Shown: positions 20,765 to 41,134, counted from the stretch's first letter. The stretch: DNA of 62,335 bases from Candidatus Thorarchaeota archaeon (GCA_011364905.1 RDNZ01000013.1:1-62335); one strand, 5' to 3'. A program made the numbers and translations. The notes: generated by a model from the sequence alone, not told the origin.

Positions 20765-20826
20765 GAGTATTTCGAAACCTCTACAACCTGAAATGGAGCG
20801 GAGGTAAAACCACGGGTCAGTAGCTA
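20765..20826 (+). repeat. Decayed copy A of the tRNA-Lys promoter, leader and first 13 nt
   Basis: Ungapped manual alignment to 22517-22578, about 50/62 identical. Confidence 0.9.
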
Positions 20827-20893
20827 TCTACCAAAAGATTTTTACAATACGCTCAACTAATTTTAACAATTGTTAACAATGTTGGCCAATTAA

Positions 20894-21322
20894 ATGACAC
20901 AAACAACCAAATCGAATACTGAAATACAAGAAGAAAATGATCATAAGGAAATTGCTTTGGAATACTTCAAATTGGTGAGTTCAGGGAAATTCAAGGATGG
21001 ACTGCGTTTCTTTGCACCCGACTGCAAGACACACAATCCATTCGTTTCAGGTAGTATAGACACCTTGACCGATGCAATGATTTCAGCAGGTAAAGACCTA
21101 GGCTCGCAAAATTCAAACCCAGGATTTACTGTCAAACATGTTCTCGCTGACGGAAACCTTGTTGCAGTACACACAGAACTTCTGAGTTCCAAATCTGATC
21201 CCAATCAAGGGGGACTCAGACAAGTCCATCTCTTCCGTTTCATGGGCGATAAAATAGTTGAGTACTGGGATATAACACAACAAGTTCTGCCTGATATGCC
21301 CAACGCGAGTGGAGCTTTCTAA
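20894..21322 (+). CDS. SnoaL-like/NTF2-fold protein
   Basis: HNP, ADGNLVAVH, HLFRFMGDKIVEYWD. Confidence 0.88.
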   Translation: MTQTTKSNTEIQEENDHKEIALEYFKLVSSGKFKDGLRFFAPDCKTHNPFVSGSIDTLTDAMISAGKDLGSQNSNPGFTVKHVLADGNLVAVHTELLSSKSDPNQGGLRQVHLFRFMGDKIVEYWDITQQVLPDMPNASGAF

Positions 21323-21424
21323 TAGTCAAGTCCAACCTCTTTGCTCTGGAGGACCAGCTGCAGAGGTGAGCATATGAGCGGTAACGATGAGAAACCATTC
21401 CAAGATAATCTAGATGAGGTAAGA

Positions 21425-21493
21425 CGAAACCACAGGCCAGTGACTAAGCCAAGTATAGCGAAAGTACACTCAGAACCTCTCTGATGTATTGAA
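21425..21493 (+). repeat. Decayed copy B of the tRNA-Lys leader, 5' exon and intron 1 (tRNA pseudogene fragment)
   Basis: Ungapped manual alignment to 22557-22625, 62/69 identical. Confidence 0.95.
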
Positions 21494-21570
21494 CTCACAG
21501 TTCCAACAAGTGAAAAGATAGATAGGGCAAGAGTGGGAGGTATTGTAGGTATTATTGGAGGTACTTTTCA

Positions 21571-22461
21571 ATGTCAGATATTCCGTATAGCGGAGAAAAA
21601 ATGGCCAAAGTAGGCGAGGTTGAACTTGCCTACGATACATTTGGAGATCCATCATCAAGACCAATGCTACTCATCATGGGATTAGGTGCACAGATGATTA
21701 AATGGAAGGATGAATTCTGCCAGGTGATAGCATCAAAGGGTCACTATGTAATCCGTTTTGATAATCGCGATGTGGGTTTGTCAACAAAATTTGATGATGC
21801 GGGTGTTCCGGATGTTGGTTCACTAATGCAAGGAAAGCCTGTGGAAACACCATACAAACTGAAAGACATGGCTGCTGATGCAGTTGGTCTGCTGGACGTG
21901 TTAGGTATCAAATCGGCTGATGTAGTAGGCGTTTCAATGGGAGGCATGATTGCTCAGACAATGGCAATTGAGTATCCTGAGAGAGTACGGACCCTTACTT
22001 CAATTATGTCTTCAACAGGTAATCCAGAGCTACCACAACCTAAGCCTGAGGTAGGGGCACTTCTTGTTGCGCCGCCAGCAGCCAACAAGACAGACTACAT
22101 CACTAATCAGGTAGCAGCGGCTAAGATCCTACATGGAACTACATTTCAGATAGATGAGGATTACGTCCGTGATGAAGCAGACCGTGCTTATGAGAGAAAC
22201 TACAACCCCCAGGGATTCACACGGCAATTTGCAGCGATACTTGCATCTGGAAGTCGTAATGCGGACTTGCAAAAAGTAAAGATACCAACCCTCGTTCTTC
22301 ACGGTAGTGTGGACCCACTGGTTCCAATTGCTGGGGGAAAAGACACTGCTAATAGCATTCCTGGTGCAAAATTCCAAGCAATCGAGGGAATGGGACACAG
22401 CTTTCCAACTGAGAGAGTTCCAGAGATACTTCAAGCTATTCTACAACACACCTCACAGTAG
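21571..22461 (+). CDS. Alpha/beta hydrolase (esterase)
   Basis: RFDNRDVGLS, GVSMGG nucleophile, HGSVDPLVP, GMGH. Confidence 0.93.
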   Translation: MSDIPYSGEKMAKVGEVELAYDTFGDPSSRPMLLIMGLGAQMIKWKDEFCQVIASKGHYVIRFDNRDVGLSTKFDDAGVPDVGSLMQGKPVETPYKLKDMAADAVGLLDVLGIKSADVVGVSMGGMIAQTMAIEYPERVRTLTSIMSSTGNPELPQPKPEVGALLVAPPAANKTDYITNQVAAAKILHGTTFQIDEDYVRDEADRAYERNYNPQGFTRQFAAILASGSRNADLQKVKIPTLVLHGSVDPLVPIAGGKDTANSIPGAKFQAIEGMGHSFPTERVPEILQAILQHTSQ

Positions 22462-22565
22462 ATGACCATAAGTAAGGTAGACACTGATAGAAGTCAGTAT
22501 ACTACTTTGATTGAGCGAATATTCCGAAAGCTCTATAACATAAAACGGAGCAGAGGCGAAACCAC

Positions 22566-22701
22566 GGGCCAGTGGCTAAGCCAGGTATAGCGACAGTACA
22601 TTCAGAATCTCTCTGATGTGTTGAAGCTCTTAACTTGTTGGTCGAGGGTTCGTAGAATCTGAATACCGGATTCTAGCCCAAAAATCCCTCCTGGCCCGCC
22701 A
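22566..22701 (+). tRNA. tRNA-Lys(CUU) with two non-canonical introns (22597-22625 at 30/31; 22652-22681 at 56/57) and encoded CCA
   Basis: Acceptor GGGCCAG/CTGGCCC + G73 + CCA; D stem GCTA/TAGC; after splicing, anticodon arm ACAGG-CTCTTAA-CTTGT and T arm GAGGG-TTCAAAT-CCCTC; both introns have a 4-bp central helix and bulge/cut positions matching BHB rules. Confidence 0.93.
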
Positions 22702-23459: not shown

Positions 23460-23586
23460 CTACTTGTTCCCACCATTCTATCGGATGAATGTTAAGCATA
23501 TTTAATTTCTTCCAACAGATTCTGGAAGCTTCAGCCTACAGAAGTGCATCATTTCTCAATGATACAAGTCATACCTCTGCACCGAA

Positions 23587-23607
23587 CAAATCCCTTCTGG
23601 CCCGCCA
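23587..23607 (+). repeat. tRNA-Lys 3'-end direct repeat R1
   Basis: caaatcccttctggcccgcca, 20/21 to the spliced tRNA 3' end. Confidence 0.95.
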
Positions 23608-24029: not shown

Positions 24030-24045
24030 CCCGTCTGACCCGCCA
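24030..24045 (+). repeat. tRNA-Lys 3'-end direct repeat R2 (degenerate)
   Basis: cccgtctgacccgcca, 13/16 to ccctcctggcccgcca; sits in the expected intergenic position. Confidence 0.65.
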
Positions 24046-24074: not shown

Positions 24075-24749
24075 TCACTGAATAAATATGCTACCTGCTA
24101 TCATTATCAGAAACGGGAGATTCACGAGATACATAACAAAATCATAGAGTGTTTCAAAAGCTGGCTCCTTACAAACCAGCTTGGCATAGTCTTGCGTTTC
24201 TTCCTTATTAGAAAAAAGAGAGATCAATTCAAGTCGATAACTTACAGCATTCATTCTATTCTGTTCTCTTTCAAATCTATGTCGTCGTCTCCATACCGAC
24301 ACTGGTAATACCATCACGGAAAAAAAGAAGCAGCTCAAGGTTATAGTATACAAGGTACCAAATGGAGAGAGTAGAAAGACAAAGTACAGAGCTGCAATAA
24401 GAATGATTAATGGATAGAGGAACGGAATGAAGAAATCAAGAATGATAATCTCACGAAATGACTCCAATTCTTTTTCCCTCTCAATGTGGTTCACAGTTTT
24501 TGCAAAGTATAATTTCACACCTGAAAGGAGGTCTGTATCTCTTAACCTAATTTTTAGTAATCCATTATCATCAATGCTTGAAGAACACGTGCGTCGCCGA
24601 GAAGAATCAGTTTCTTCGAATTTGATCTCAACTCTCTCTAGAACAACATTGCTATATTCTTCTGTATAAAGCCCAGGACTCTTTTCAAGTATCAACTTCT
24701 CTGCCCGTCTTATTTCGTCCGCACTATGATTCAGGCTCATTGTTTTCAA
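24075..24749 (-). CDS. Hypothetical membrane protein (cassette 3)
   Basis: 224 aa; soluble N-terminus and three TM segments. Confidence 0.65.
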   Translation of the reverse strand: MKTMSLNHSADEIRRAEKLILEKSPGLYTEEYSNVVLERVEIKFEETDSSRRRTCSSSIDDNGLLKIRLRDTDLLSGVKLYFAKTVNHIEREKELESFREIIILDFFIPFLYPLIILIAALYFVFLLSPFGTLYTITLSCFFFSVMVLPVSVWRRRHRFEREQNRMNAVSYRLELISLFSNKEETQDYAKLVCKEPAFETLYDFVMYLVNLPFLIMIAGSIFIQ

Positions 24750-24817: not shown

Positions 24818-24845
24818 GAGAATTCAAATCCCCCCTGGCCTGCCA
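24818..24845 (+). repeat. tRNA-Lys 3'-end direct repeat R3 (intron-less form)
   Basis: gagaattcaaatcccccctggcctgcca, 24/28 to spliced gagggttcaaatccctcctggcccgcca. Confidence 0.92.
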
Positions 24846-24854
24846 TCAGTTTTC

Positions 24855-25109
24855 CTACCCTCTTGAATCCATCTGAAATGCCTCCTCAGCATGCCAACCA
24901 ATGAATACTAACAGACTACCAATACCACTCCCAATCGCGCCTCCTTGAACTGCCACACCAATGTACAAATTGGTATCTATATACTGGGGAGAGTATGCAA
25001 TCAGATATGCTGCTGATAAAACAACACTGAAAACTGAGAAGAGCAGAATTGCCATTCCTAAGGCAAATATAATAGCTCTTACTATGAAGGGGATATTTCT
25101 ACCACTCAA
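24855..25109 (-). CDS. Small 2-TM hypothetical protein (cassette 4)
   Basis: 84 aa; GGAGGGTGG SD-like element and AT-rich TATA-like box upstream. Confidence 0.65.
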   Translation of the reverse strand: MSGRNIPFIVRAIIFALGMAILLFSVFSVVLSAAYLIAYSPQYIDTNLYIGVAVQGGAIGSGIGSLLVFIGWHAEEAFQMDSRG

Positions 25110-25164
25110 TCTACCACCCTCCAGACTGAGAAAAGATGTTCTATTAAATACATACTACTGAATA

Positions 25165-25188
25165 GTTCAAATCCCCTCTGGTCCGCCG
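25165..25188 (+). repeat. tRNA-Lys 3'-end direct repeat R4 (intron-less form)
   Basis: gttcaaatcccctctggtccgccg, 20/24. Confidence 0.9.
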
Positions 25189-25191
25189 ACT

Positions 25192-26367
25192 CTATTTCCT
25201 TCGAATCACAATGAATACAACGATTACAATCACAGCTATGGTTCCGATAATCAACAAAATGAGCATCACCGGAGTTTCAGGTGGTAGAAAGGTATCCGTA
25301 GTTGTTTCTGTGGAAGTCGTTGTTCCAGTTGTAGTGGGTGGAGTAGTCATTGTGGTCGACTCCCCCAGAACGGTGATGATAACAGTATCGACCAAACTGT
25401 ATCCAGACACATCGTTCACAACAAGAGTCAGATTATACATTCCAACTGTCAAACCATCTATTGCCTTTGACAGATGATCCAAGGATGTATTTAATGGGCC
25501 CTGAGTGAAAATTGCATCATTCCAAAACATCGCATAAGAATGAGGATTTGGTAATCTCACATCCCATGCGACTGAGGGGACAGATGAACCAAAAACATAC
25601 TCAACATCAGTTGGCTTACTGAGAAATCCTCGAGGATAGTTGTCTTCACCAACTCCCGAAATTGAATAGGCACCTACTCCGGAATAGTCCGACCAGATAT
25701 TCCCTGTACTGCTTCCGTCATCCCAGTCATTGAACATTCCTTGGTCGTTAGCATTTCCTGCAGAGTTGAAACCTATCATGTTGTCGTAAATCTCAGAATA
25801 CAGAGTATATGAATAAACATTCAAACCAAGATTGGCATTTCCATAGACCTTGTTACCCACTATGATAACACCTGATGTGTATATCATGTATATCCCGTCA
25901 GCTGAGCATCCATAGATCTTGTTTTCCATGATCTCCAGATAGTTAACAACATAGAGCCGTATAGAATACTGCTTATCATGAATAGTGTTGTTGTAAATCA
26001 ATCCATTGTTTACATTTGAAACATAGATGCCTCTGCCTGAATCTTGGGATTGTGAGTACAATAAACAATTACTGATGATAAAATGAACATCGGTATTTGC
26101 TATGCTGACACAAGTGCCGTCAGTCACGATTTCAAGTGAGTCAATGACATAAGGCGATTGCTCTGTGCCATTACCCGGCCAACCCTGTGCTGCAAAATCC
26201 GCGTTGCTTGATATTGTAATTGCGGCATGAGGAGTGAGCGATGATAATCTAAACGAGGTGTTCTGAAACTCATTCGAATCCATGGGCAAGGAAATGAAAC
26301 TAATGCTAGCGCAGGACATGACCAGTATAATACTCAATACTAATGGAAAAGATGTCTTCTTCACCAA
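25192..26367 (-). CDS. Cell-surface right-handed beta-helix (NosD/CASH) protein with Thr-rich linker and TM anchor (cassette 5)
   Basis: GWPGNGTEQSPYVI, repeated NxIxxN/GIY units, GNIWSDY; TTTATATA box upstream. Confidence 0.85.
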   Translation of the reverse strand: MVKKTSFPLVLSIILVMSCASISFISLPMDSNEFQNTSFRLSSLTPHAAITISSNADFAAQGWPGNGTEQSPYVIDSLEIVTDGTCVSIANTDVHFIISNCLLYSQSQDSGRGIYVSNVNNGLIYNNTIHDKQYSIRLYVVNYLEIMENKIYGCSADGIYMIYTSGVIIVGNKVYGNANLGLNVYSYTLYSEIYDNMIGFNSAGNANDQGMFNDWDDGSSTGNIWSDYSGVGAYSISGVGEDNYPRGFLSKPTDVEYVFGSSVPSVAWDVRLPNPHSYAMFWNDAIFTQGPLNTSLDHLSKAIDGLTVGMYNLTLVVNDVSGYSLVDTVIITVLGESTTMTTPPTTTGTTTSTETTTDTFLPPETPVMLILLIIGTIAVIVIVVFIVIRRK

Positions 26368-26446
26368 TCTCCCCAGACCAGATGGGCAAATCCACTATAT
26401 AAAGAAGAGCAGTGTTCCATTTACTTTTTTATAACGGGACTTCAAT

Positions 26447-26465
26447 AATCCCTCCTGGCCCGCCA
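26447..26465 (+). repeat. tRNA-Lys 3'-end direct repeat R5
   Basis: aatccctcctggcccgcca, perfect 19/19 to 22683-22701; the pyrimidine-rich flank is also similar. Confidence 0.97.
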
Positions 26466-26472
26466 ACTCTTT

Positions 26473-26964
26473 CTAAGTTCTTCTTTCTATAGTCCTTGTT
26501 CTTAAGACCTGATGCGCTCCAACCAGTAATAGTAATGGAGTTGGCACAAACAATCTTAGATTGACATCCGGTGCTAAAATTGATATGAGGACTCCTGGCA
26601 GTGTTCCATAAATCACGTTGCCAGACATCAATACCAAACAAATGATAATCTCAATTCCGATGAGGATTAATCCAAAGGTCCGAACAAGATTCAGACCAAC
26701 TCTATCTAGGTTGAATCCAATCAGCGTGATCACAAACAATACCCTTGGTATCAACACTATAATGTTCGGTAATAAGATGATTAGCCAATCATTGAGATAC
26801 CAGTCAGAGTATAGAATTGCCCACGTTGATCCCATAACTCCAAAGAAGAGATGACTTGAATCACGCCACTCCAGATATTGAAATCCTATTACCGCAGGAG
26901 TGAATAATGCTAATACTAGGAGTAGAATGAGATTCCGAACCGTATTTGCAGAATTGAATCTCAA
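26473..26964 (-). CDS. Hypothetical 4-TM membrane protein (cassette 6)
   Basis: 163 aa hydrophobic ORF. Confidence 0.65.
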   Translation of the reverse strand: MRFNSANTVRNLILLLVLALFTPAVIGFQYLEWRDSSHLFFGVMGSTWAILYSDWYLNDWLIILLPNIIVLIPRVLFVITLIGFNLDRVGLNLVRTFGLILIGIEIIICLVLMSGNVIYGTLPGVLISILAPDVNLRLFVPTPLLLLVGAHQVLRTRTIERRT

Positions 26965-27064
26965 ATTGCCTTGCTCCTATCACACAACCTACCGTTATTG
27001 CGCTCTTTTGATAGAAATGTCTATCCATTACCAAAGAAATGTACGAGGACCTCTGCTCTGTCCT

Positions 27065-27083
27065 AATCCCTCCTGGTCCGCCA
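27065..27083 (+). repeat. tRNA-Lys 3'-end direct repeat R6
   Basis: aatccctcctggtccgcca, 18/19. Confidence 0.95.
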
Positions 27084-27091
27084 TCTTGATT

Positions 27092-27838
27092 TTACTGATT
27101 TCTGAAAATGTATATTCCCCAGCTGATGGTATCTCTACCCCATTTTAGGTAGATATCTTTTGCAGTCTTTGTTTTCTCGAGAAGCTCCTGATTATCGGGA
27201 TCATCAGTATGCGACTGAATATAATTTTCAACAGCCCACCACTGAAGAGTTTCATAGTGGTCCCAATCATCTTTGTTAGACACAAGTGTATAGAGGCATG
27301 TGAGTCCCATTTCTTCACCTTGATACACATTATCTTCATGCGGTCGAAAAGAATTACGAGTCATTTTGGTCACCTCAAGATATTCAGTATCAGGCTCTTT
27401 CAACCAAAAAGGTTCACCAACAATCGCAAGACCTCCAGGTTTTATCATCTGCTTGAGTGCTCTCAATGTTCCAGCATGATCTTCAAAGACCCAGCTTGCT
27501 CCTAAACACATTGCAACATCAAATAGTCCTCCTGATTCAGGTCGATACTTAGCACCATCCAACTCAATGAAGGTTAAATCGGATTCAGGAACTCTCTCGA
27601 GATGTTTCTTCTTACAATCATTGATACAAAATGGAGATAGATCAACTCCCACGCCTGAAATTCCATATTTCTCTGCTAGTCTGACTAAGACCTCCCCCTT
27701 TCCACATGCGATATCAAGAATTCGAGTATCTTTTGGCAGGTTGAGAAGTTGACAGAATCGTTCGAATTTCTCTTCACTCATTGGATTACAGAGTACATGA
27801 TGCTTGTGTGTAATGTCATAATACTTCCATTTGTCCAT
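27092..27838 (-). CDS. Class I SAM-dependent methyltransferase, YjhP-like (cassette 7)
   Basis: ILDIACGKGE, GVDLS, CLGASW, KPGG..IVGEPFW. Confidence 0.88.
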   Translation of the reverse strand: MDKWKYYDITHKHHVLCNPMSEEKFERFCQLLNLPKDTRILDIACGKGEVLVRLAEKYGISGVGVDLSPFCINDCKKKHLERVPESDLTFIELDGAKYRPESGGLFDVAMCLGASWVFEDHAGTLRALKQMIKPGGLAIVGEPFWLKEPDTEYLEVTKMTRNSFRPHEDNVYQGEEMGLTCLYTLVSNKDDWDHYETLQWWAVENYIQSHTDDPDNQELLEKTKTAKDIYLKWGRDTISWGIYIFRNQ

Positions 27839-27889
27839 CTACATCATCTCCATACCTGTTGACTCGAAGATACTCTTGGAAATAAATAT

Positions 27890-27918
27890 TCGAGGGTTCA
27901 AATCACCCTAGCCGGCTA
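27890..27918 (+). repeat. tRNA-Lys 3'-end direct repeat R7 (intron-less form)
   Basis: tcgagggttcaaatc is a perfect 15-nt match across the intron-2 splice junction, followed by degenerate accctagccggcta. Confidence 0.88.
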
Positions 27919-28066
27919 CTCTTTCCCGATTCTATCAAACATCTCGATAGGATGAACGTCATACTTTGCTGCAATAATCTTGTAACTTATATAAATCAGG
28001 TTTATACGAAGACGTATGGCCCAAGATCATCTTGAACGCATTGAGAGATTAGTGGGAGCTGAATAG

Positions 28067-29800
28067 GTGATGGCTGTTGCTTTCATGGCTTCGCTTGAAC
28101 AATCACCTGAAACTTACGAACAGGAGTTTGATGATGTACTTGAGGGAAGAAGTAGACGTATCCGGGAACGTATTCTCGAGCTTGTCAAACCCGGAATGAA
28201 AGTGCTTGACCTTGGATGTGGTCCTGGGCAGTTTGCAATTGAGGCGTCAAAAAAAGGAGCCTCGGTTATCGGTGTCGACTCTAACATGGGCATGATAACA
28301 TTTGCTAAGACGAGCGCTTCAACACTTGAAAAAGCCCCCGACTTTGTTTGTTCTGATGTATTGGCAATTCATGATGAATTGCAGGTTGAGGACATAGAAG
28401 CATCTCCCAGCTTAATTCCTGACCATAAGTTTGACCTCATTGTTAGTACTTTTCTCTTATCGGAGCTTAAACCTGTTCAACGTGATTTGCTCTTGCGGAA
28501 TATGAGAAAAATGCTTTCAGATGAAGGCGCTTTCGTAATTGCTGCAGAAACACTTCCTGAGTCATCGTCTGATAGGAAAACATTCTGGAAGAACAGAGGG
28601 CTGGTTGAGAAGGAAGCTCGAGTTCGACTTGCACCACCTATTGTTTCCCTTGAAGATCTGATTCAGAAGGCTGGTTTTGTCATTAAGGAATCCGAAAGAT
28701 ATGGTCCTGAAATAGTGTATCTTACTGGAACTAAGAGTCTCATTGAACCTCCGAATGAATATCAGAGCAGAGTTAGACCAATCTTTGGAGGCGTCGCGAG
28801 AACAAGAATTTGGTACTGTCATATCACTGGTGGCTGGCGCGGAATATCAATAACACCCGGTCTTTATCGAGCAGGGACTCCAAACTCAGAAAGCCCTGTC
28901 TTGGTGACAGCTAACTATGAACTCACATATTATACAGTGATGAGAGCATTAGCAAAGGATAGTATCGATGCATGGGTGCTTGTCTGTGATACTGATGGCA
29001 TCAATGTCTGGTGCGCTGCACGAGGAACCCACTTCAATAGCGATGATGTTGTTAATATGGTGCGTTTAACTGGTCTAACTGATATAGTGAATCATAGAGA
29101 ATTGATCCTACCACAGTTATCAGCTGCTGGAATGGACCCATCAGAAATTCGTAGACGAACGGGGTTTAGAGTTCGATATGGTCCTGTCAGAGTCTATGAT
29201 CTCTCTGAGTGGTTTGAACTCGGAAAACCAAGGCCTAAGCCAAGAGGAATGGCAACCGTCACATTCAATCTGAGGGAGCGGATGGAGCAGACTGTTGCCC
29301 ACGTGCCATTTCTGTTTGCGGTTCTACTTGGCAAGCCTCTTGTTGCTATTCTTGGAATGATTGCACTCATCAATTTACTAGCCTCGATGTTCCCAATCGC
29401 GCTTGCAGCGACTTATCCAACATCTCTTCAGATTCTCTCACTTATTGGCGAGTTTGTTTTTGCTCTCGCTGCCAATTCTCTCGTACTTGGCTTATTGTTC
29501 CCTATTCTGCCTTCGAAAGGAAACTCATTCTGGCGTCGGGGCCTTGGTCTTTCAGCTATTACACTGCCTATTGCAGCGATAATCATGATACTTATGGGAG
29601 TGCACTGGACTGATATGACCTCGTGGATGATAATCCAATTCGTTCTTGTGATATCTTTGACCATGGACTGGTCGGGGATGACATCAGTGAGCGATCCAAA
29701 GGTAATAAGAAGGGAGTATCCATACCTAATACTGACATTAAAAACAGGAGCCATGTTTCTGGTGGTTTTCAACCTAATCGTTATAATCATGGGCTGGTGA
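28067..29800 (+). CDS. hgcA: Fusion of a class I SAM-methyltransferase domain with an HgcA-type corrinoid-binding domain and TM region
   Basis: KVLDLGCGPG (motif I); PGLYRAGTPNSESPVLVTANYELT, DTDGINVWCAARG cap helix, LILPQL, YGPVR; C-terminal TM helices. Confidence 0.8.
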   Translation: MMAVAFMASLEQSPETYEQEFDDVLEGRSRRIRERILELVKPGMKVLDLGCGPGQFAIEASKKGASVIGVDSNMGMITFAKTSASTLEKAPDFVCSDVLAIHDELQVEDIEASPSLIPDHKFDLIVSTFLLSELKPVQRDLLLRNMRKMLSDEGAFVIAAETLPESSSDRKTFWKNRGLVEKEARVRLAPPIVSLEDLIQKAGFVIKESERYGPEIVYLTGTKSLIEPPNEYQSRVRPIFGGVARTRIWYCHITGGWRGISITPGLYRAGTPNSESPVLVTANYELTYYTVMRALAKDSIDAWVLVCDTDGINVWCAARGTHFNSDDVVNMVRLTGLTDIVNHRELILPQLSAAGMDPSEIRRRTGFRVRYGPVRVYDLSEWFELGKPRPKPRGMATVTFNLRERMEQTVAHVPFLFAVLLGKPLVAILGMIALINLLASMFPIALAATYPTSLQILSLIGEFVFALAANSLVLGLLFPILPSKGNSFWRRGLGLSAITLPIAAIIMILMGVHWTDMTSWMIIQFVLVISLTMDWSGMTSVSDPKVIRREYPYLILTLKTGAMFLVVFNLIVIIMGW

Positions 29801-29806
29801 CAAATA

Positions 29807-30133
29807 ATGACCGTTGTAACGCAGCAAGTCGATCTTGAGATAGAGTATGACCCACATCGGTGCAACCGTTGTGGAATGTGCCTTGAGGTCTGTCCATTTA
29901 ACGTCTGGGAGCTGCCAGTTGACGGTCCCGCAGTCATTGCAAGACCTGAAGACTGTACTAATTGTACTGCATGTGCCAAGAACTGCTTAGGCAATGCCAT
30001 AAATGTAAGAAACATAGGTTGCGGATGTATCTGGAACGAGTCCGCACGACGGAGTGGAAAGGTCGAGGAGTCAGTAATCGGCAAAAATCAAGATAGTTGC
30101 TCACCAACAGAAGGTAAATCCTGTTGTGAATGA
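29807..30133 (+). CDS. hgcB: HgcB-like 2[4Fe-4S] ferredoxin with Cys-rich tail
   Basis: CNRCGMCLEVCP, CTNCTACAKNC, GCGC and terminal CC; 6 bp after the hgcA-like gene. Confidence 0.7.
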   Translation: MTVVTQQVDLEIEYDPHRCNRCGMCLEVCPFNVWELPVDGPAVIARPEDCTNCTACAKNCLGNAINVRNIGCGCIWNESARRSGKVEESVIGKNQDSCSPTEGKSCCE

Positions 30134-30400
30134 CTACCTTCTCAATCCAATTCGCTACCACAATTATCGACCATATTCGTAGTTTAGTATATTTTACTGG
30201 ACACCACGAAATGATGAATCGTGCACTGATTCATCTAATTGAAGTTTTCATGGAAGATATGTAGAATGCAAACGATCTCTTTTCTCAAGTCTTTTGATGG
30301 CATTAAGCTAGAGTTCTCAGCTGAACTTGCAGCAAGAGAACTTGGAGTTAATATCGAACTCTATCACCACACTTGGGATGATTATCTCTCTTGCTAATGC

Positions 30401-30420
30401 CAAATTCCCCTAGCCCGTCA
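30401..30420 (+). repeat. tRNA-Lys 3'-end direct repeat R8 (degenerate)
   Basis: caaattcccctagcccgtca followed by tctctttcc, as after R5 and R7. Confidence 0.7.
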
Positions 30421-30486
30421 TCTCTTTCCACTCAATTCTTCTATTAATATAAACACCTATAGGCTACTTAGAGTCGCGAAAAGCCT

Positions 30487-30960
30487 ATGAGTCTCTCAAT
30501 CAAGAAGGGGATTAGTTTTGGAACCACATCCGGAGTTATTACAACGCTAGGAATGATTGTGGGAGTAAATGCAAGTACAAGCTCTCGTCTTGCTGTAATT
30601 GCAGCGATAGTGGCAATCGCGATAGCCGACGCTTTCTCCGACGCTGTTGCAATGCATGTATCAGAGGAATCTGAGGGTGTTCATTCACGAAACGACGTCT
30701 TGGAGGCTACTCTGACTACATTCTTTACAAAATTCATTTTTGCCTTGAGTTTCGTGGTCCCAATCTGGTTCTTGGCCCTTGATATTGCAGTCGTAGTGGA
30801 CATTATTTGGGGCTTATTGATTATGACTGTTTTCAACATCCTCCTAGCTCGTTCACAGAAAGAAGGAGTATTACGAGTTGTTTTCGAACATCTTACAATT
30901 GCAGTCGCTGTTGTTCTAATAACCTACATCGTTGGTTCGTTCCTATCAACAGTCGTCTAA
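30487..30960 (+). CDS. VIT1/CCC1-family metal transporter
   Basis: FGTTSGVITTLG, AIADAFSDAVAMHVSEESE; five TM. Confidence 0.85.
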   Translation: MSLSIKKGISFGTTSGVITTLGMIVGVNASTSSRLAVIAAIVAIAIADAFSDAVAMHVSEESEGVHSRNDVLEATLTTFFTKFIFALSFVVPIWFLALDIAVVVDIIWGLLIMTVFNILLARSQKEGVLRVVFEHLTIAVAVVLITYIVGSFLSTVV

Positions 30961-30984
30961 GAAGCAAGACCATAATTGACACCT

Positions 30985-31012
30985 TCGGGATTCAAATCCT
31001 TCTTGGCCGCCA
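30985..31012 (+). repeat. tRNA-Lys 3'-end direct repeat R9 (intron-less form)
   Basis: tcgggattcaaatccttcttggccgcca versus spliced tcgagggttcaaatccctcctggcccgcca. Confidence 0.85.
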
Positions 31013-31057: not shown

Positions 31058-31939
31058 GTGAGGACCATCCGGTTAATCGACATGGAAGGGATACTCAGAA
31101 CAGGCACAGGAGAAATCCGCTTCTTATGGAAACTTGCTGTGACCTTCATACTGCTTATTGTGTTGATTGTCATTAGCAGGCTCAGTTTGATACTTATGGT
31201 CCAACAAGTTCTCATCTTCCAAGGGACACTACCTTCTGCTGCTTTTGAGAACGCGCAAATCTTTGTAGCCGAATCATCAGAGGGTCAAGCGATTGCGAGT
31301 TCGCTGGATTTAGCGTTGATACTCCTACTCGTTTTCCTCCTAGTTACTCGCATCGAAAAACATGAGTTTCACTTGGCTGACATTGGTCTTAATCTGCAGC
31401 GCGATACTCTGCCCCTCGTTGTGTTTGGAATCGTTATTGGATGTGGTCTTTTTCTCGGAGCAGTGATGTTTGGAGTGCTTCTCCACACGATTGGACTTCC
31501 TGTGTATCCCCATCTTGAACAGTGGCCACTTTTAATCACACTAATAGCATCAGTAATCTTCTACGGTCTGAATAGCTTCTGGCAAGAGATTGTGTTTCGA
31601 GGGTATTTGCAGACCCAGGCGGTTGAAGAATATGGCGGGCTACTCGGAATTTCTACTGTTACAGTAGCCTTTGTTCTCTTTCACGGACTAGTTCAGACTC
31701 TAACACCAATAGGAATCATCTCAGGTCTGTTGCTATTCGGCTACATAGGACTCCTATACGAAAAGACCAGATCGCTCTACCTTGTGGGTGTGATTCATGC
31801 AGTTCTCAACTTCTTACCAGTTCTTTTCAACCTATCATGGCAAGGGTTAGAGAGTGTCATAACATATGGCATTGCGCTTGTACTACTGATTCTGTTGATA
31901 CGCAGAACCGAGCAATCAGCATCAACCGATTCGCAGTAG
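31058..31939 (+). CDS. CPBP/Abi (CAAX protease-like) membrane protein
   Basis: QEIVFRGY (EExxxR variant), FVLFH, HAVLN. Confidence 0.85.
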   Translation: MRTIRLIDMEGILRTGTGEIRFLWKLAVTFILLIVLIVISRLSLILMVQQVLIFQGTLPSAAFENAQIFVAESSEGQAIASSLDLALILLLVFLLVTRIEKHEFHLADIGLNLQRDTLPLVVFGIVIGCGLFLGAVMFGVLLHTIGLPVYPHLEQWPLLITLIASVIFYGLNSFWQEIVFRGYLQTQAVEEYGGLLGISTVTVAFVLFHGLVQTLTPIGIISGLLLFGYIGLLYEKTRSLYLVGVIHAVLNFLPVLFNLSWQGLESVITYGIALVLLILLIRRTEQSASTDSQ

Positions 31940-32262
31940 TTCCAGTTATACCAATTGTTTTGATACTGCCCTGTCTGCTCCGACATTACATCCTAGTGAT
32001 GACGAAGAACTCTTGGAGACCGCTTTCTCCTCCTCACAGATTTCCGGGTGCCATCATTAATCACCCAAGGCATTGCAGGTCGGTCCTTCCCAGTCCATAT
32101 ACTATTGACTCTCAACTGGCTACTGCGAAGGAGAGTCCATAGCCGCCTCTTCTTCTCTCTCCTATTTTTGGCTGTCATCTTCCTTTTCAAATATGAACCT
32201 GAAGACCTTTCATCTTTTAGGTCAGAAGGATGCTTCAGTTCAGACCTTTCCTTTCCACTATC

Positions 32263-33237
32263 CTATTTCGCTATTTTGCCAAGTTTCGAAATCACTTCTT
32301 CGGCTTCACTCATTATTCTATCAAGCAATTCCTTCACAGTGGGAATATCCTTTATCAGACCTACACCTTGACCGCAACTCACGACTCCAAGGTCAATGTC
32401 CCCTTCCCTATACATCTTCTCTGATTTTTCCCCAGAGGCTGCCTGAATAAGGGTGTACAAGGGCACTTTTTGAGCCTCTAGTTCGAGTACTATCTGTGCA
32501 GCCTTATTATTCCAGAACCTGTGGGTATTTCCAACCGACCGCAGAGCCAAGACTGTATCAACTTCCCTTGCCTGTACAAAAGCTTGCTTCAGGTTGTCAT
32601 GAATGGGACACTCCTTTGTAGCCATCATCCTTGTGCCCATGATCACCCCTTCCGCACCCAGGGCAAAGGCTGCAGCAACACCTCTACCATCTGTTATTCC
32701 TCCCCCTGCAATCACAGGGACATTTAGAGCATCAACTACAGAAGGAGTCATCACCATTGTTCCTATGTCCAGAATCCCAGTGGCTCCGCCGTTCTCATAC
32801 CCAACCACTGTTATGATATCGGCTCCCAGCGATGCTCCTTTGAGCGCGTATCTCACGCCTGCACACTTGTGAATCCAGACTGCGCCTCCGTCCTTGAATT
32901 TTGGAACCAGGTCCTCCGGAGCCTTGTGACCACTTGTTTCAATGATCTTCACGTCCTCAGCCAATGTGGCATCGACATAGTCTTCCAGCTTTTCCTGGGG
33001 CATCAACGCGGGGAAGAGATTGATATTTACGGCAAATGGCTGGTCTGTGAGAGACTGTGTCTTCTTGATGGCATCACGCAACGCATCAGGAGTCTTGTAG
33101 TTCGCACTGGCTAAAACAGCACAGGCACCAGCATTACTTGCTGCCGCAACGAACTCAGGATTAGAGATCCTTGCCATGGTCCCTGCTATAATCGGGTATT
33201 TGCATCCCAACATTTCAGTTACTCTTGTCTTTATCAT
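32263..33237 (-). CDS. Nitronate monooxygenase/FabK-family flavoenzyme
   Basis: YPIIAGTM, PFAVNI, GYENGG, PVIAGGGITDGRG, GTRM, GQGVGLI. Confidence 0.92.
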   Translation of the reverse strand: MIKTRVTEMLGCKYPIIAGTMARISNPEFVAAASNAGACAVLASANYKTPDALRDAIKKTQSLTDQPFAVNINLFPALMPQEKLEDYVDATLAEDVKIIETSGHKAPEDLVPKFKDGGAVWIHKCAGVRYALKGASLGADIITVVGYENGGATGILDIGTMVMTPSVVDALNVPVIAGGGITDGRGVAAAFALGAEGVIMGTRMMATKECPIHDNLKQAFVQAREVDTVLALRSVGNTHRFWNNKAAQIVLELEAQKVPLYTLIQAASGEKSEKMYREGDIDLGVVSCGQGVGLIKDIPTVKELLDRIMSEAEEVISKLGKIAK

Positions 33238-33320
33238 TGGCTTACACCCACATCCTTTGACCATTGATTTGATTCTCACAGATAAGTCTCATTATCAGAT
33301 TCGGTAATCACTACAGAACG

Positions 33321-34166
33321 TTACTTCCTAGTGCTGTCAACAACCTCAGATAGTATTGTGTTGTTTCCCTCCCACCTGCGTAGTTTGGGCCAGATTACTG
33401 CCCAGATTATCGCCATTAACAGTAACAGATTAGACGGCTGAACAATCGGGCTCACCAATGAGGTAGGTGCGTTACCCAAGGCGTGCACCATCATTACGAA
33501 GAAAAGGTTCTCTGTTCGTAAATAAAGAAGGCCATAGATGATTCCATTCAAAAACACGCTGAACAGGAGTTCTTGAACCACTACCATTGTCCATCCATCA
33601 TTAAACACTCTCCAGGGGACATGGAGCACAGTGAAGAGCGCTTGGGACAGAAGCAGAGCAACGGCCACTTGCAGATATCTGTTTTCAAACGAGTCCTTCA
33701 GCTTAATCCTGAACTGGATGAGGAAAAACCCTCTAAATCCAATTTCTTCATACAAGGCGGTACCAAAGAGCATTCCTATTAATAGACCAATTATGGAAAG
33801 ACTTTCCGTGCTCCATTGTCCGTTGAGTTCAACACTTCCTGTTCCGATTTGGCTTATTGCCGCTTCGGCTATCTGAACAAGAATCCAAGTTATCAGACCT
33901 ATAACAGCAGCAAGTGGCAGTTTTCTAGTCACTAGTCCAATATCTCTTCCCTGAAGTTTACCGTATAAGATCAGGGTTCCGTAGACTGCAATCGTCAGTA
34001 GGAGCAGATTCAGTATCAGCGAACGGTCGATTAGTCCCGAACTGGCAGTCTCTACAGATTGAACTATTCCTACTACGTACAAGCCCAAATACAGAATGAC
34101 GAGAACAATACTCACAGCGAAAAACAGAGCCATTGTTTTGTAGTTTGACTCCTTAGACTCAATCAT
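33321..34166 (-). CDS. CPBP/Abi (CAAX protease-like) membrane protein
   Basis: EEIGFRG, FTVLH, HALGN. Confidence 0.88.
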   Translation of the reverse strand: MIESKESNYKTMALFFAVSIVLVILYLGLYVVGIVQSVETASSGLIDRSLILNLLLLTIAVYGTLILYGKLQGRDIGLVTRKLPLAAVIGLITWILVQIAEAAISQIGTGSVELNGQWSTESLSIIGLLIGMLFGTALYEEIGFRGFFLIQFRIKLKDSFENRYLQVAVALLLSQALFTVLHVPWRVFNDGWTMVVVQELLFSVFLNGIIYGLLYLRTENLFFVMMVHALGNAPTSLVSPIVQPSNLLLLMAIIWAVIWPKLRRWEGNNTILSEVVDSTRK

Positions 34167-34429
34167 TTTGAAACCACTCATCCGTCGATGATTTAGAATC
34201 AATTCAAATCCGAATTCCTCATTGTCTTGGAACATCCTCCTTATATTTTCAATCCAAACCAACCTTCAATTATGGATTCTCCCTGTTTTGCACGAGAAAA
34301 CCCAGGTATGACTGTCTTACATCACTCACAGAAATCAAGTTGGATACTCCCATGTACTTGTATGCACATCCGACATATGATGGCTATAGAGCCAAATAGA
34401 ATTGGTCCTCAAACTACGTTAATGAAAGA

Positions 34430-35200
34430 GTGGTGATGAGCATGACTTCTTTAACAGAGCATTTGAAACAATTAGCACTTGAAGTTGGTTTCGCATCGGT
34501 GGGCATATCTCGTCCAGATTTGCTTGAGGATTTGCCCTATGGACCCGTTGGTCAGGTGACAACACTGCGACCCCCTATACAGGAGCTACTAGAAACAAAG
34601 TCGGTCATACTCCTTGTGTTTCATACTTGGGACAAGATATTCAGCCTCTCAGTGGATCCTCCTGAATGGAGGGGCTATGGCCTTCACTCTCCGGAAGAAG
34701 AGTTTGAGAGTTACTATCTCCCATATGAGATAATGAAGAATAAAGCATGGGAGATTGTTGATTTTCTCCGAAGAGAAGGATATGAGGCTAAATACTCGTT
34801 AAGAATTCCTCTGAAGACAACGGCAATCAAGTGTGGTCTTGGCTGTCAGGGGAAGAATACGTTATTGGTCACCCCAAAACATGGGCCCCGAGTGAATCTA
34901 ATCTCGATACTCACAAATGCTGAACTGGAAGTAAACGAGCCCTTCAAGGAGGATCTTTGTGGCGACTGCAATCTCTGTGTCACAGCGTGCCCGACAAAAG
35001 CGCTTGCACCATACTCAATCACAATCGAGAAATGTATGACATACTCTGCTGAGACTCCGTGTTCAACGGATGTTTCTCAGCATGTACGCGAGATGGAGAA
35101 GAAACTCGTTTCACGACCAACAGAGAACAGCTATATTGAGTGTGCAAGGTGTATGGAGGTCTGTCCGATAGGAAAGAAACCTAAGTCCAATTCGAAATGA
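34430..35200 (+). CDS. Epoxyqueuosine reductase (QueG)/reductive dehalogenase-like cobalamin 4Fe-4S protein
   Basis: GLGCQGKNTLLVTPKHGP, CGDCNLCVTACP, CARCMEVCP. Confidence 0.85.
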   Translation: MVMSMTSLTEHLKQLALEVGFASVGISRPDLLEDLPYGPVGQVTTLRPPIQELLETKSVILLVFHTWDKIFSLSVDPPEWRGYGLHSPEEEFESYYLPYEIMKNKAWEIVDFLRREGYEAKYSLRIPLKTTAIKCGLGCQGKNTLLVTPKHGPRVNLISILTNAELEVNEPFKEDLCGDCNLCVTACPTKALAPYSITIEKCMTYSAETPCSTDVSQHVREMEKKLVSRPTENSYIECARCMEVCPIGKKPKSNSK

Positions 35201-35202
35201 GT

Positions 35203-36120
35203 TCAAAGTCTCTTCTTCAGATAATACTCCTTTATAGGATCAGGATATCCGTCAGAAACCCCGAAGACCTCATACCCGCACTTTTGGAAGAACTCAGGAG
35301 AATTGAATGATAGTACCCATGTCAGTCCTGAGACCGCTCCCTTCTCCTTTGCTATCTTCTCTGCTTCAGTCAGGAGATGCCTTCCAAGTCCTTGCCCACG
35401 AAATCTCTCATCAACCCACATCAGCTCAATGTGCAACACACCAATAGCTGTGAATGCACTAAGGCCTCCAATTATCTGATCATCATCTTTGACGACGAGT
35501 TTCACTCTGATGCCTGGATATTTCTTCAAAGACTCTCCCGCCTGCTCCTTGACATATCCACCTAACCCTTTATCCAATACTTTCATTGCATCTTCTGATT
35601 TGTCCTCAGAGATAGTGAATCCTTTGAACTTGTCATCTGGCCTTGTTCTATCCTTTCTCTCCAAGCCCCGCCATGTGTCGTCCAGTTTCTTCATGAACAC
35701 AAATTCTGTAATATTATCAGGATACACATCACATATTCCTATGACATTGTACCCTATTGCTTTGTAAAACTCAGGTCCTTGGAACGAGAAGGTCCAAGTC
35801 TGCGCCGCAGTGTATCCTTTTGCCTTTCCAATCCTCTCTGCTTCTAGTACGAGGTTTCTTCCATAGCCCAACCCACGATATTTCTTATCTATCCAAAGGA
35901 TTTCAAGATGCATGACTCCAGTCTTCATGCTGGTGACCACTCCCCCGACAACGTTTCCATCTTGGTCCCGCAAGACCAGGTTGATATCATTGTAGGGGAC
36001 ATCTAGATCACCATATGGCTGTTGAGCGTCATAGACCCTAAGGCCTTCACTAATGACTTCCATCTCCTCCTCGGTTGGATTATCAATTATGACAAATCGA
36101 TTGGGCTCTTTATGGTCCAT
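35203..36120 (-). CDS. Tandem GNAT acetyltransferase
   Basis: Two internal repeats, each with LWxD..RG.G.GR and FY/FF.K.GY. Confidence 0.9.
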   Translation of the reverse strand: MDHKEPNRFVIIDNPTEEEMEVISEGLRVYDAQQPYGDLDVPYNDINLVLRDQDGNVVGGVVTSMKTGVMHLEILWIDKKYRGLGYGRNLVLEAERIGKAKGYTAAQTWTFSFQGPEFYKAIGYNVIGICDVYPDNITEFVFMKKLDDTWRGLERKDRTRPDDKFKGFTISEDKSEDAMKVLDKGLGGYVKEQAGESLKKYPGIRVKLVVKDDDQIIGGLSAFTAIGVLHIELMWVDERFRGQGLGRHLLTEAEKIAKEKGAVSGLTWVLSFNSPEFFQKCGYEVFGVSDGYPDPIKEYYLKKRL

Positions 36121-36236
36121 CGTATTTCCGGCTCCTGATGATTTGTTGAAAAATACGCTTGCATTAATTGTCTTTCTAGAAGCGCAGAAAACTAATTTGA
36201 AAACTCGGAATGTGTAACTCGTACTATAAAGAAACC

Positions 36237-36270
36237 ACCGACATTAGTCGGTACAGTCAAGCGTCGGTAC
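36237..36270. promoter_or_regulatory. Palindromic operator ACCGAC-N4-GTCGGT plus extra half site, just downstream of a TATAAA box
   Basis: accgacattagtcggt at 36237-36252; gtcggtac at 36263-36270; same motif at 37385. Confidence 0.7.
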
Positions 36271-36313
36271 AAAGATTATGCTTCTTTTTGAGTCAGTAGA
36301 GTTGGTGATAAAA

Positions 36314-36529
36314 ATGGCTTGCACAACAGAACAACAAACAATCGCTCTCATCGACCTGCCTGGACCAATCGAGAGTGAAAAGAAGAGCGCTTCAAAAGAG
36401 GTTGATGCCTATGACGTCAAGGCTAGAAACTACCGAAAGCACTTGGCACAACAAGAAGCACTGCGCCAGCTCGAGAGGAACAGAACATATGCTCTGGCAG
36501 TAGCTCGTGGAGTATCGCTTTACAGGTAG
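36314..36529 (+). CDS. Small hypothetical protein (71 aa)
   Basis: TATA box, GGTGAT SD and a downstream T-tract. Confidence 0.6.
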   Translation: MACTTEQQTIALIDLPGPIESEKKSASKEVDAYDVKARNYRKHLAQQEALRQLERNRTYALAVARGVSLYR

Positions 36530-36636
36530 AACTAGGAGGCGTACATGCATTGATATCGAATTATCTATGCCAGTGCCAAGTAAGGCACCGCCTCTATCTT
36601 TTCTTTTTTTAATATCAGAATAATGTAGTTGGTCTA

Positions 36637-37350
36637 TCAAACAACAGCCATGGTTTCTCTTCGATCCTTCGGGATCCGCCTGAACAACTGGATGTGTGGA
36701 ATGAGCGCAGTGATGATTTTGTTCTCTGCTTTTTTCAGGTGCTCCAGAAAGGTGGTCCTGGATATCTTCTCCTTGGATGCGATAGTCTGAAGGTCTGCTC
36801 CTCGTGGGAACCTGAAATATCCCTGCGCAAATGCTGTCAAGAGAGCATCCACTTGTTTGTCAGTCAATCCCGAGAAGAGAGCATCTGTTGTGAGTGTTAG
36901 AGAACTCGCTATGTACCCATCAAACGGTTTCTTTCTAAGAATCTCCACCTCAAATCCATCTTCTTTCAGCTTTGCAAGAAGTTTCTTGACATTCTCATGT
37001 TTAAAGGCAATCAACCTGAGGTGTTCCCATCCCTCCTCGTATGCAATTGGAGGTATCAGTAGGAGGGTTGGATCATTGAGATAGTGCTGAACTGTGCCGG
37101 GTCCTCCGCATGCGCACATTCTGGTGATGACATGAGTGTTTCCACCATTGTGCATCTCATCAATTATCTCGACAGACTTTGTAAAGTCCTTACGTATCTC
37201 GCCATAGTCTTCCTGTTTCTGTAGAACCAGCTCCATGATGTCGTACTCATCATTACACCATTGAAAGATCTTAGCTGATGGATGTTCTTTGGTTATTAGG
37301 CCAAAGGGATTCTGATATCTTGCTCTGAAAACGACTTCGAATAATGGCAT
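36637..37350 (-). CDS. Bat-like (HTH_10) transcriptional regulator
   Basis: LTDKQVDALLTAFAQGYFRFPR...ISRTTFLEHLKKAENKI. Confidence 0.9.
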   Translation of the reverse strand: MPLFEVVFRARYQNPFGLITKEHPSAKIFQWCNDEYDIMELVLQKQEDYGEIRKDFTKSVEIIDEMHNGGNTHVITRMCACGGPGTVQHYLNDPTLLLIPPIAYEEGWEHLRLIAFKHENVKKLLAKLKEDGFEVEILRKKPFDGYIASSLTLTTDALFSGLTDKQVDALLTAFAQGYFRFPRGADLQTIASKEKISRTTFLEHLKKAENKIITALIPHIQLFRRIPKDRRETMAVV

Positions 37351-37384
37351 ACTTTATCTCACTCCAATAGACATATATGAACTC

Positions 37385-37402
37385 TACCGACATATGTCGG
37401 TA
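37385..37402. promoter_or_regulatory. Perfect 18-bp palindrome upstream of the HTH_10 regulator
   Basis: taccgacatatgtcggta. Confidence 0.75.
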
Positions 37403-37539
37403 TCGTGTTAATCTTTGCTATTCTGACCACTGTGCCTTCATTGATAAAGAGGGGATTGAGACTTCTCAGAGAAGCATGTCCCCCTCTATTGGACTGAGGT
37501 TTCCTCTGTACTCTAAGTGATTTTAGGTTGATTTAGGAT

Positions 37540-37836
37540 TTAGTCTGCATAACGCATTGTCGTGTAACCATCAATGATACGCCATAAACCATGCACGACT
37601 ACGAACGCTAACACACCTAGTATTATCATATTCCAATAGACACTTGATGTGAGTAGCGAGCCACCAAGCTCATTCACATATGGTATCACAGCAAAGATCA
37701 CAACGATTTCCAGAATCCCCATGATTAGCTGGCCTACGAAACGCGGTTTTGCCACACCTTTCTTCATTTCCCTGAAACTCTCCAAATTAGGTACACATGC
37801 GTTGCGCAGCTTGCATATAATACATTTCATCCACAA
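37540..37836 (-). CDS. Small 2-TM hypothetical protein
   Basis: Two hydrophobic segments; start uncertain. Confidence 0.5.
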   Translation of the reverse strand: MWMKCIICKLRNACVPNLESFREMKKGVAKPRFVGQLIMGILEIVVIFAVIPYVNELGGSLLTSSVYWNMIILGVLAFVVVHGLWRIIDGYTTMRYAD

Positions 37837-37952
37837 TTTGGATGCCCTGGAATCAAGAATTAATTCACATTGGAAACTATTTATGGTGTTACTGCCTCTG
37901 GGACGAAACCATCAAGCCCTCGACCCTCTTGATTTCAGAAGCGTGAACCTCA

Positions 37953-39590: not shown

Positions 39591-39592
39591 TC

Positions 39593-41116: not shown

Positions 41117-41134
41117 ATCATCTGGTGCTGCAAG

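Follow-up and report, generated by a model that had tools for sequence, protein, structure and literature searches.

The DNA analysed here, a stretch of 62,335 nt that we call the window, comes from a Candidatus Thorarchaeota archaeon (GCA_011364905.1, RDNZ01000013.1:1-62335), an Asgard metagenome-assembled genome (MAG) of 3.08 Mb in 95 contigs that is 81% complete (G000 below). It carries an array of small gene cassettes between a tRNA-Lys(CUU) gene and a nitronate monooxygenase (NMO) gene, in which the cassettes are separated by repeats that resemble the 3' part of the tRNA. A preliminary description of the part from 24818 to 31012 had noted that several of these repeats match the spliced tRNA and lack its T-loop intron. 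It had offered three explanations: an RNA or cDNA intermediate, donor sites from intron-less tRNA-Lys alleles or paralogues, and a gain of the intron after the older insertions. Our analysis of the locus and of its relatives favours a form of the second explanation, in which the repeats are likely to be attachment (att) junctions whose left arms were copied, as DNA, from tRNA-Lys alleles with and without introns.

The tRNA-Lys(CUU) gene (22566..22701) encodes its CCA end and lies on the plus strand, as do its introns and all the repeats described below. Its assignment is based on the sequence, on the fold, and on orthologues with identical exons in which the introns are variable or absent. The gene is interrupted twice, by intron 1 in the anticodon stem (around 22597-22625) and by a T-loop intron of 30 nt at position 56/57 (22652..22681, gtagaatctgaataccggattctagcccaa). 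The latter separates GGGTTC, which ends at 22651, from AAATCCC, which starts at 22682. A clean cloverleaf results once both are taken out, and the T-loop intron is predicted to form an internal hairpin of its own. Judged from sequence and predicted fold, it has the attributes of an archaeal bulge-helix-bulge (BHB) tRNA intron: it interrupts a canonical tRNA, would form a helix with flanking bulges, and is gone or replaced in relatives. Three of these (G008, G009, and G021) have the same tRNA-Lys exons and no insert at 56/57. Neither ARAGORN nor Rfam reported any tRNA in the window. Both missed this one because two non-canonical introns interrupt the gene, and it was found by hand and then confirmed via the orthologues.

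Copies of the 3' exon start downstream of the gene at 23588, 24826, 25169, 26446, 27064, 27900, 30402, and 30994, and decayed copies lie near 24030 and 32136. In total, there are at least nine copies of the 3' end behind the tRNA, and the core pattern is matched six times where 0.18 matches are expected. The cassettes between them are units of one or two genes, 0.3-3 kb long and about ten in tandem. Their products are a zinc-ribbon membrane protein, small open reading frames (ORFs), a NosD-like beta-helix protein, a methyltransferase, a methyltransferase-HgcA-like fusion with a ferredoxin, a VIT1-like protein, and a CAAX protease.

The repeats differ in what precedes the 3'-exon copy (in the sequences given below, a slash marks the splice junction). 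R1 (23558..23607), at the distal end of cassette C1, consists of a whole foreign T-loop intron (23558-23587) followed by the 3' exon (23588-23607). R2 is a probable but weak, decayed repeat between two small-ORF cassettes (24030..24045, CCCGTCTGACCCGCCA), which matches the 3' end of the G003/G017 allele at 15 of 16 positions; the ggccta upstream of it may be an intron tail. R3 (24818..24845) ends the cassette of a 224-aa ORF (24075-24749, minus strand) and has the intron-less arm GAGAATTC before its 3'-exon copy (GAGAATTC/AAATCC). R4 (25161..25188), with the arm AATAGTTC/AAATCC, ends the cassette of an 84-aa ORF. R5 (26446..26465) lies behind the NosD/beta-helix cassette (25192-26367, minus strand) and its arm is ambiguous (gggacttcaa/TAATCC), while R6 (27064..27083) has a decayed arm of the TTC type (ctgtcc/TAATCC). 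Cassette C6, a gene for an S-adenosylmethionine (SAM)-methyltransferase according to Pfam (27092..27838, minus strand), is followed by R7 (27890..27918), whose arm TCGAGGGTTC is part of C6 and whose right part AAATCACCCTAGCCGGCTA is divergent. R8 (30402..30420, AAATTCCCCTAGCCCGTCA), behind the methyltransferase-HgcA-like/ferredoxin cassette (28067-30133), is decayed and has no T-arm flank; its CTAGCCC variant is similar to the allele of the G035 genus. R9 (30985..31012) ends the VIT1-like cassette (30487-30960) with the arm TCGGGATTC/AAATCC and the right part AAATCCTTCTTGGCCGCCA.

The array extends past 31012, where the preliminary description had ended it. A last cassette and its repeat occupy 31058..32147 on the plus strand: the gene of the CAAX protease (31058-31939), which has repeats on its flanks in G003, G005, G023, and G024, is followed by a decayed terminal repeat at about 32136-32147 and then by tcttcttctctc, and the flank behind this repeat matches the flank behind the tRNA in G025. 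The conserved right flank of the array is the NMO gene (32263..33279, minus strand). It lies behind the last repeat in G024 and directly behind the tRNA in G007, where the site is empty and the NMO gene starts within about 40 nt of tRNA-Lys.

The first observation of the preliminary description was correct: R3, R4, R7, and R9 read TTC/AAATC without the 30-nt intron. R7 is identical to the spliced tRNA at 15 of 15 positions (27890-27904), and the T-arm matches are 6/8 in R3, 5/8 in R4, and 8/9 with one gap in R9. TTC stands immediately 5' of the 3'-exon copy in four of eight repeats, against its frequency of 0.024, which gives a binomial P of 2e-5. The 11-mer GGGTTCAAATC is not enriched by itself when one mismatch is allowed (2 found versus 1.39 expected), and its significance results from its location right before 3'-exon copies, not from its abundance. 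The claim that R1, R5, and R6 begin at or just after the junction fared less well, since R1 has a whole intron copy upstream, R6 a decayed TTC arm, and R5 is ambiguous. The flank of R6 is homologous to a TTC-type arm in G011_C130 (cctgttc/AAATCC), from which it differs by a decay of tgttc/AAAT to tgtcc/TAAT. An assignment of this flank as an intron tail, given that it shares ACCTCTGC with R1, was dropped because the homologue in G011 has a TTC end.

The repeats that read across the junction could in principle stem from another tRNA that has no intron, since the T-arm GGTTCAAATCC is common to many tRNAs. The tRNA-Ala and tRNA-Thr have 18 of 19 T-arm bases in common with it, and R4 is matched equally well by a tRNA-Met. 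However, when the repeats were compared with the 32 tRNAs detected in G000, the acceptor strand CTGGCCCGCCA made the spliced tRNA-Lys(CUU) the best or equal-best match of every repeat. In every relative, too, it is tRNA-Lys(CUU) that anchors the array. We therefore regard such an origin as highly improbable. A pattern search for tRNA-Lys(UUU) in G000, at its 81% completeness, gave none.

The tRNA region served as query against 60 related genomes, whose loci we then read. The exons of tRNA-Lys(CUU) are nearly invariant among the relatives, whereas its introns are highly variable. At least 12 genomes of the same genus (G000, G004, G005, G007, G010, G016, G020, G022, G023, G024, G025, and G027) carry an intron at 56/57, and so do two other genera. 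Three genomes (G003, G006, and G017) have an intron at 53/54 instead, and at least five (G008, G009, G011, G014, and G021) have no T-loop intron and read GGGTTCAAATCC or GGGTTCGAATCC. Within the genus, at least nine unrelated sequences of 30 nt occupy position 56/57, most of them ending in GCCCAA or GCCTAA and a few in CCGAAC, and the one resident in G000 is replaced by unrelated ones in at least 11 genomes. Positions 30/31 and 37/38 as well as the variable loop have likewise gained or lost introns. Close relatives with an intron-less tRNA-Lys(CUU) thus exist, a finding that the preliminary description had named as one that would weaken the case for an RNA intermediate.

The introns are found in the repeats as well. 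We aligned the 30 nt upstream of each non-tRNA repeat to all resident intron alleles and compared the scores with a null distribution, which has a 99th percentile of 6 and a maximum of 9. This gave seven significant cases of intron copies, and in each of them the best-matching intron of a resident tRNA comes from another genome. The copy in R1 (23558-23587) is identical to the tRNA-Lys intron of G022 at 24 of 30 positions (score 18), and in G020 the same cassette end still has the succession of tcgagggttc, intron, and 3' exon intact. A repeat of G017 (locus position 10383, score 16) has an intron of the 56/57 type, whereas the tRNA of G017 itself has the 53/54 intron. The first repeat of G004 holds the intron type that is resident in G000. 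Since these copies contain introns, mature tRNA cannot be their source.

These data bear on the idea that reverse transcription, with mature, spliced tRNA-Lys as its primer or template, builds or inserts the cassettes and so leaves repeats without the intron. This idea accounts for the four repeats that span the splice junction and for the CCA that is part of the repeats. However, the CCA is encoded by the gene itself, and the seven repeats with intron copies, R1 among them, show that copying is not limited to spliced RNA. The genus has intron-less genomic alleles, and the arms bear allele-specific DNA variants of other lineages. Furthermore, intron 1 is retained upstream of the gene, where two partial copies of its promoter and 5' exon are found (20765-20826 and 21422-21493, together 20765..21493, plus strand): the second of them holds all of intron 1, which points to copying at the level of DNA. 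Finally, a search for reverse transcriptases (RVT_1) found none in G000 (81% complete) nor in 27 of the 28 genomes of the genus, leaving one genome with a hit. We conclude that an RNA or cDNA route is extremely unlikely, which removes a tempting but wrong reading of the locus, namely cDNA-mediated cassette formation in an Asgard archaeon. The repeats that look spliced would instead be copies of intron-less genomic alleles that were moved along with cassettes. The explanation by intron-less tRNA-Lys donors gains support from the alleles of the same genus and from the flanks inherited with the cassettes, and it must be extended to include intron-bearing copies.

That arms are inherited with cassettes can be seen by comparing the tRNA-Lys(CUU) arrays of the relatives, many of which have cassettes in common at different positions. 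The methyltransferase cassette C6 is present in 21 loci, at differing array positions in many Thorarchaeota genomes. Its distal end ..aaataaatattcgagggttc/AAATC (in longer form ..cttggaaataaatattcgagggttc/AAATC) is conserved in at least eight genomes, which include G000, G021, G022, G023, G018, G014, G010, and further MAGs. C6 adjoins an intron-less tRNA in G021, and the resident tRNAs of G022 and G023 carry the 56/57 intron. The arm of R3 occurs with the same cassette in G005 (gagagttc/AAAT), where the counterpart of this cassette ends in GAGAGTTC/AAAT. The arm of R9 occurs with the VIT1 cassette as gattc/AAAT in G026 and G010_C11, the same cassette has the end ccttc/AAAT in G027, and a homologue of R4 in G023 has diverged to AGTTG/AATTCC.

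Cassettes are also present or absent between co-occurring strains, as revealed by contigs (X1, X2, and X4) from public sequencing runs. Contigs of X1 and X2 depart from the sequence of the window exactly after 27904. In one X2 contig, the arm of C6 is joined to the right part of R3 and the next cassette, and X2 also has an array variant without two of the cassettes. X4 has an intron-less tRNA with C6 directly behind it; we read its joint (22651>27065) as a co-occurring strain of the source study that is similar to G021, and not as an excision product of this array. Three other joints (22596>24823, 24847>27166, and 24846>25543) were left out because of their short sides of 24-25 letters. Together, the cassette-linked arms and the contigs X1 and X2 imply that the left arm moves together with the cassette before it, and the right part together with the sequence behind it.

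Among all genomes, 72 non-tRNA repeats were listed, three of which are other tRNA genes. TTC precedes AAATCC in about 39 of the remaining 69 or so (42/72 unfiltered), and the binomial test on TTC arms across genomes was run at 39/66. These arms are the largest class, and they are found alike beside resident tRNAs with the 56/57 intron, with the 53/54 intron, and without any: the type of arm does not correspond to the resident allele.

These observations also concern the third explanation, in which the resident gene gained its T-loop intron only once the older insertions were in place, such that the junction is spanned by old scars but not by younger ones, which begin with the downstream exon. 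The premise is correct: the intron is neither universal and ancestral nor fixed, its sequence and position turn over rapidly within the genus, and both gains and losses occur. The temporal record is not supported, because a repeat has its 5' boundary from the cassette before it, such that this boundary is no record of how the resident tRNA looked at insertion, and because arms are inherited with cassettes across genomes whose resident alleles differ. The arm types are also interleaved along the array, with an intron in R1, TTC in R3 and R4, unclear or decayed arms in R5 and R6, TTC in R7, none in R8, and TTC in R9. Moreover, the repeats supposed to be limited by the junction turned out to have an intron copy (R1) or a decayed TTC arm (R6). 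A chronological reading of the repeats is therefore quite improbable.

We think it likely that the repeats are att junctions, that the cassette array which they belong to, between tRNA-Lys(CUU) and the NMO gene, varies by strain and has no integrase, and that their left arms are DNA copies of tRNA-Lys alleles. Each repeat would be a hybrid junction, in which the left arm, 5' of the T-loop, comes from the cassette in front, and the sequence from the 3' strand of the T-stem and the acceptor part onward comes from what follows. The left arm would have been copied from the T-arm region of one tRNA-Lys(CUU) allele or another, from about tRNA position 47 on. The intron polymorphism would give rise to the two kinds of arms, the majority being intron-less (..GGTTC/AAATCC, as in R3, R4, R7, and R9) and the rarer ones intron-bearing (as in R1). 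Cassettes would move by site-specific recombination through a recombinase that may be encoded elsewhere, and the exchange would fall within AAATC(C)..CCNNC, directly 3' of the intron point.

The position of the exchange is suggested by C6. Behind its invariant arm ..gagggttc, the 3' strand of the T-stem varies by genome (CCCGC, CCCCC, CCCTC, CCCAC, or CACCC), and these varied strands no longer pair with GAGGG. A variable strand behind a constant arm places the exchange between tRNA positions 53 and 62. Furthermore, near-identical copies of C6 lie behind resident tRNAs with different introns (G022 and G027) or none (G021), and cassette C1 keeps its intron copy in two genomes. Introns hence segregate with the left side, which argues for an exchange within AAATC(C)..CCNNC and so for an exchange point that would lie immediately 3' of the intron point. 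The zone fits the T-loop class of tRNA integration sites reportedly distinguished by Williams in 2002.

An exchange on the other side of the intron would have different consequences. If alleles were swapped at insertion, the tRNA would take the T-loop and 3' part of the incoming cassette, the old resident part including its intron would be pushed to the far end of that cassette, and the repeats would record former resident alleles. A model of this type was put forward for the tRNA-Thr of Caldiarchaeum (Sugahara et al. 2012, PMC3293823). It is in line with the first repeat behind the tRNA, which holds the intron of another allele in three genomes (G000, G004, and G005) and, in G023, the tail of an intron, and with tRNA-like homology that begins at the same position, around 47, in both kinds of arms. 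However, the introns follow the left side in the C6 copies of G021, G022, and G027 and in the two genomes with C1, even if these are few cases in all. We thus find allele swapping unlikely, and retain an exchange 3' of the intron.

Several points weigh against an array of att junctions as proposed here. The domains of tyrosine and serine recombinases searched for, PF00589 and PF00239, are both lacking in G000 at its 81% completeness, and each was found in only 8 of the 28 genomes of the genus, never on a contig with an array. There is no recombinase domain in the cassette ORFs of the window and no recombinase among 19 larger ORFs of six arrays, and the PF00589 and PF00239 searches of genome, genus, and family yielded no candidate. 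Two scans of IMG/VR found no virus contig that carries the att site. Only a few families of cassettes were available for mapping the exchange, which could not be narrowed down to a single base: the position-wise entropy on the junctions of the methyltransferase cassette gives only a zone, at tRNA positions 54-62, and its table includes two false hits. Most relatives are fragmented MAGs whose contigs are often broken at the tRNA-Lys locus, and related genomes are not independent samples. Finally, the proposal does not account for the first acquisition, by a cassette, of an arm copied from a tRNA gene, with or without intron. As no recombinase was found, the movement by site-specific recombination is inferred. 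The metagenomes gave 25 contigs with the site, all of them only further arrays with both types of arms, and neither the genomes searched nor IMG/VR contain an autonomous element, with an integrase and a replication module, on the same att site. PF00589 is lacking in 20 of the 28 genomes of the genus, including some that are 95-97% complete, which would also mean that these have no detectable chromosome resolvase of the XerA type.

The locus shares traits with several known systems. Archaeal elements that integrate in tRNA genes leave attL/attR direct repeats, e.g., the 44-bp repeat of the 3' end of tRNA-Arg in SSV1, or those of pNOB8-type elements (PMC3293823). Here too, an intact tRNA and a direct repeat of its 3' part bound the insert, mismatches between element and host are inherited in the junctions, and a relative has the empty site. 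However, the inserted units have only one or two genes, lack an integrase or a fragment of one, and are arranged in tandem and reordered across genomes. The array as a whole is comparable to the tycheposon islands of Prochlorococcus (bioRxiv 10.1101/2020.12.28.424599) and to the additive flexible genomic islands at tRNA genes of Alteromonas (PMC4898812). It has in common with them a hotspot anchored at a tRNA, repeats of partial tRNAs, a content that differs between close strains, and identical cassettes in distant backgrounds and at other positions. Those islands are bacterial and involve identifiable elements that carry integrases. The present array, by contrast, belongs to an Asgard archaeon, neither a recombinase nor an autonomous element on the same att site was found for it, and the target tRNA has polymorphic introns that are mirrored in the repeats.

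Integrons, including archaeal ones, combine IntI, attI, and attC cassettes (bioRxiv 10.1101/2022.02.06.479319). As in integrons, the array consists of mostly single-gene, promoter-poor cassettes, each ended by a recombination site and shuffled between genomes. Unlike them, it has sites derived from a tRNA and a tRNA gene as anchor; PF00589 is absent from G000 and from the array contigs, and the T-stem strands are uncoordinated (GAGGG with CCCGC, CCCAC, or CACCC). The locus resembles tycheposon and additive islands and cannot be classed as an integron, because it has neither IntI nor attC hairpins. The traits of a retroelement are missing as well, with no reverse transcriptase in G000 and copies that are not confined to spliced RNA.

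The interplay with a hyper-polymorphic T-loop intron is new, and so is the finding that the arms of cassettes have kept copies of alleles of both kinds, with and without the intron. As cited in PMC3293823, the hypothesis of Randau and Soll (EMBO Rep 2008) holds that archaeal tRNA introns partly break the attachment sites of mobile elements, and direct evidence for introns guarding such sites is lacking according to the same source. A precedent is the heterogeneous tRNA-Thr(GGU) locus of Caldiarchaeum subterraneum, with three variants and an insertion that bears a recombinase (PMC3293823). There, as here, intron-bearing and intron-less versions of the att region coexist in one population, and a link between introns and integration was proposed. 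That case concerns one locus, whereas here there are dozens of junctions in about 30 genomes, both kinds of copies are kept, and the intron lies beside a mapped exchange zone. The array persists beside intron-bearing and intron-less alleles, and so the hotspot is not simply lost where the intron is present. We tentatively suggest, as a possibility on which we would not insist, that the T-loop intron lies at the 5' edge of the exchange zone and that its turnover (unrelated sequences, shifts to 53/54, losses) reflects a running conflict with the system that shuffles the cassettes. The arms would then be a dated fossil record of tRNA alleles, and introns might be passed between lineages on them. 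If true, the locus would allow, for the first time, a test at the population scale of whether tRNA introns guard attachment sites. With polymorphic introns at the site of exchange in about 30 Asgard genomes, and both kinds of alleles in the junctions, the question can be answered from public metagenome data.

Some further observations concern the surroundings of the array. The two partial copies upstream of the tRNA gene each have one gene behind them, coding for a SnoaL-like protein and an alpha/beta hydrolase (window 20765-22565), in a mirror image of the downstream array. This suggests a second set of insertions, which supply their own 5' part of the gene. In G004 (L002, position 426), an upstream copy of the tRNA is cut off in the T-loop. 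Inverted partial copies of tRNA-Lys, with inverted arrays, were found on the contig of the resident gene in G020:C435 (L026) and G014:C69 (L025/L091), which points to inversions between att copies. On the other side, the order of tRNA-Lys, array, NMO gene, and linalool-dehydratase-like gene (window 32263-41953) is shared by the loci L095, L115, and L023. L115 has more repeats past the NMO gene, and so in some genomes this gene may sit within the array. Within the array, the cassette at 28067-30133 codes for a fusion protein, made up of a SAM-methyltransferase and a CdhD/HgcA-like corrinoid domain with membrane helices, and then for a small 4Fe-4S ferredoxin. Five relatives have copies of it in other places, with 65-67% identity (G013:C4, G021:C33, G017:C26, G002:C27, and G004:C87).

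Only 32-33 tRNA genes were identified in G000 by ARAGORN and Infernal, and tRNAs for Lys, Asn, Asp, Phe, and Tyr are missing from this set. It is probable that many of the tRNAs are interrupted by more than one non-canonical intron, as tRNA-Lys is. A tRNA with a CAT anticodon in G003 (G003:C153, L057, reverse strand, 5212) has an intron that is close in sequence to intron 1 of tRNA-Lys (78% identity over the 5' part), and intron sequences appear to be common to different tRNA genes.

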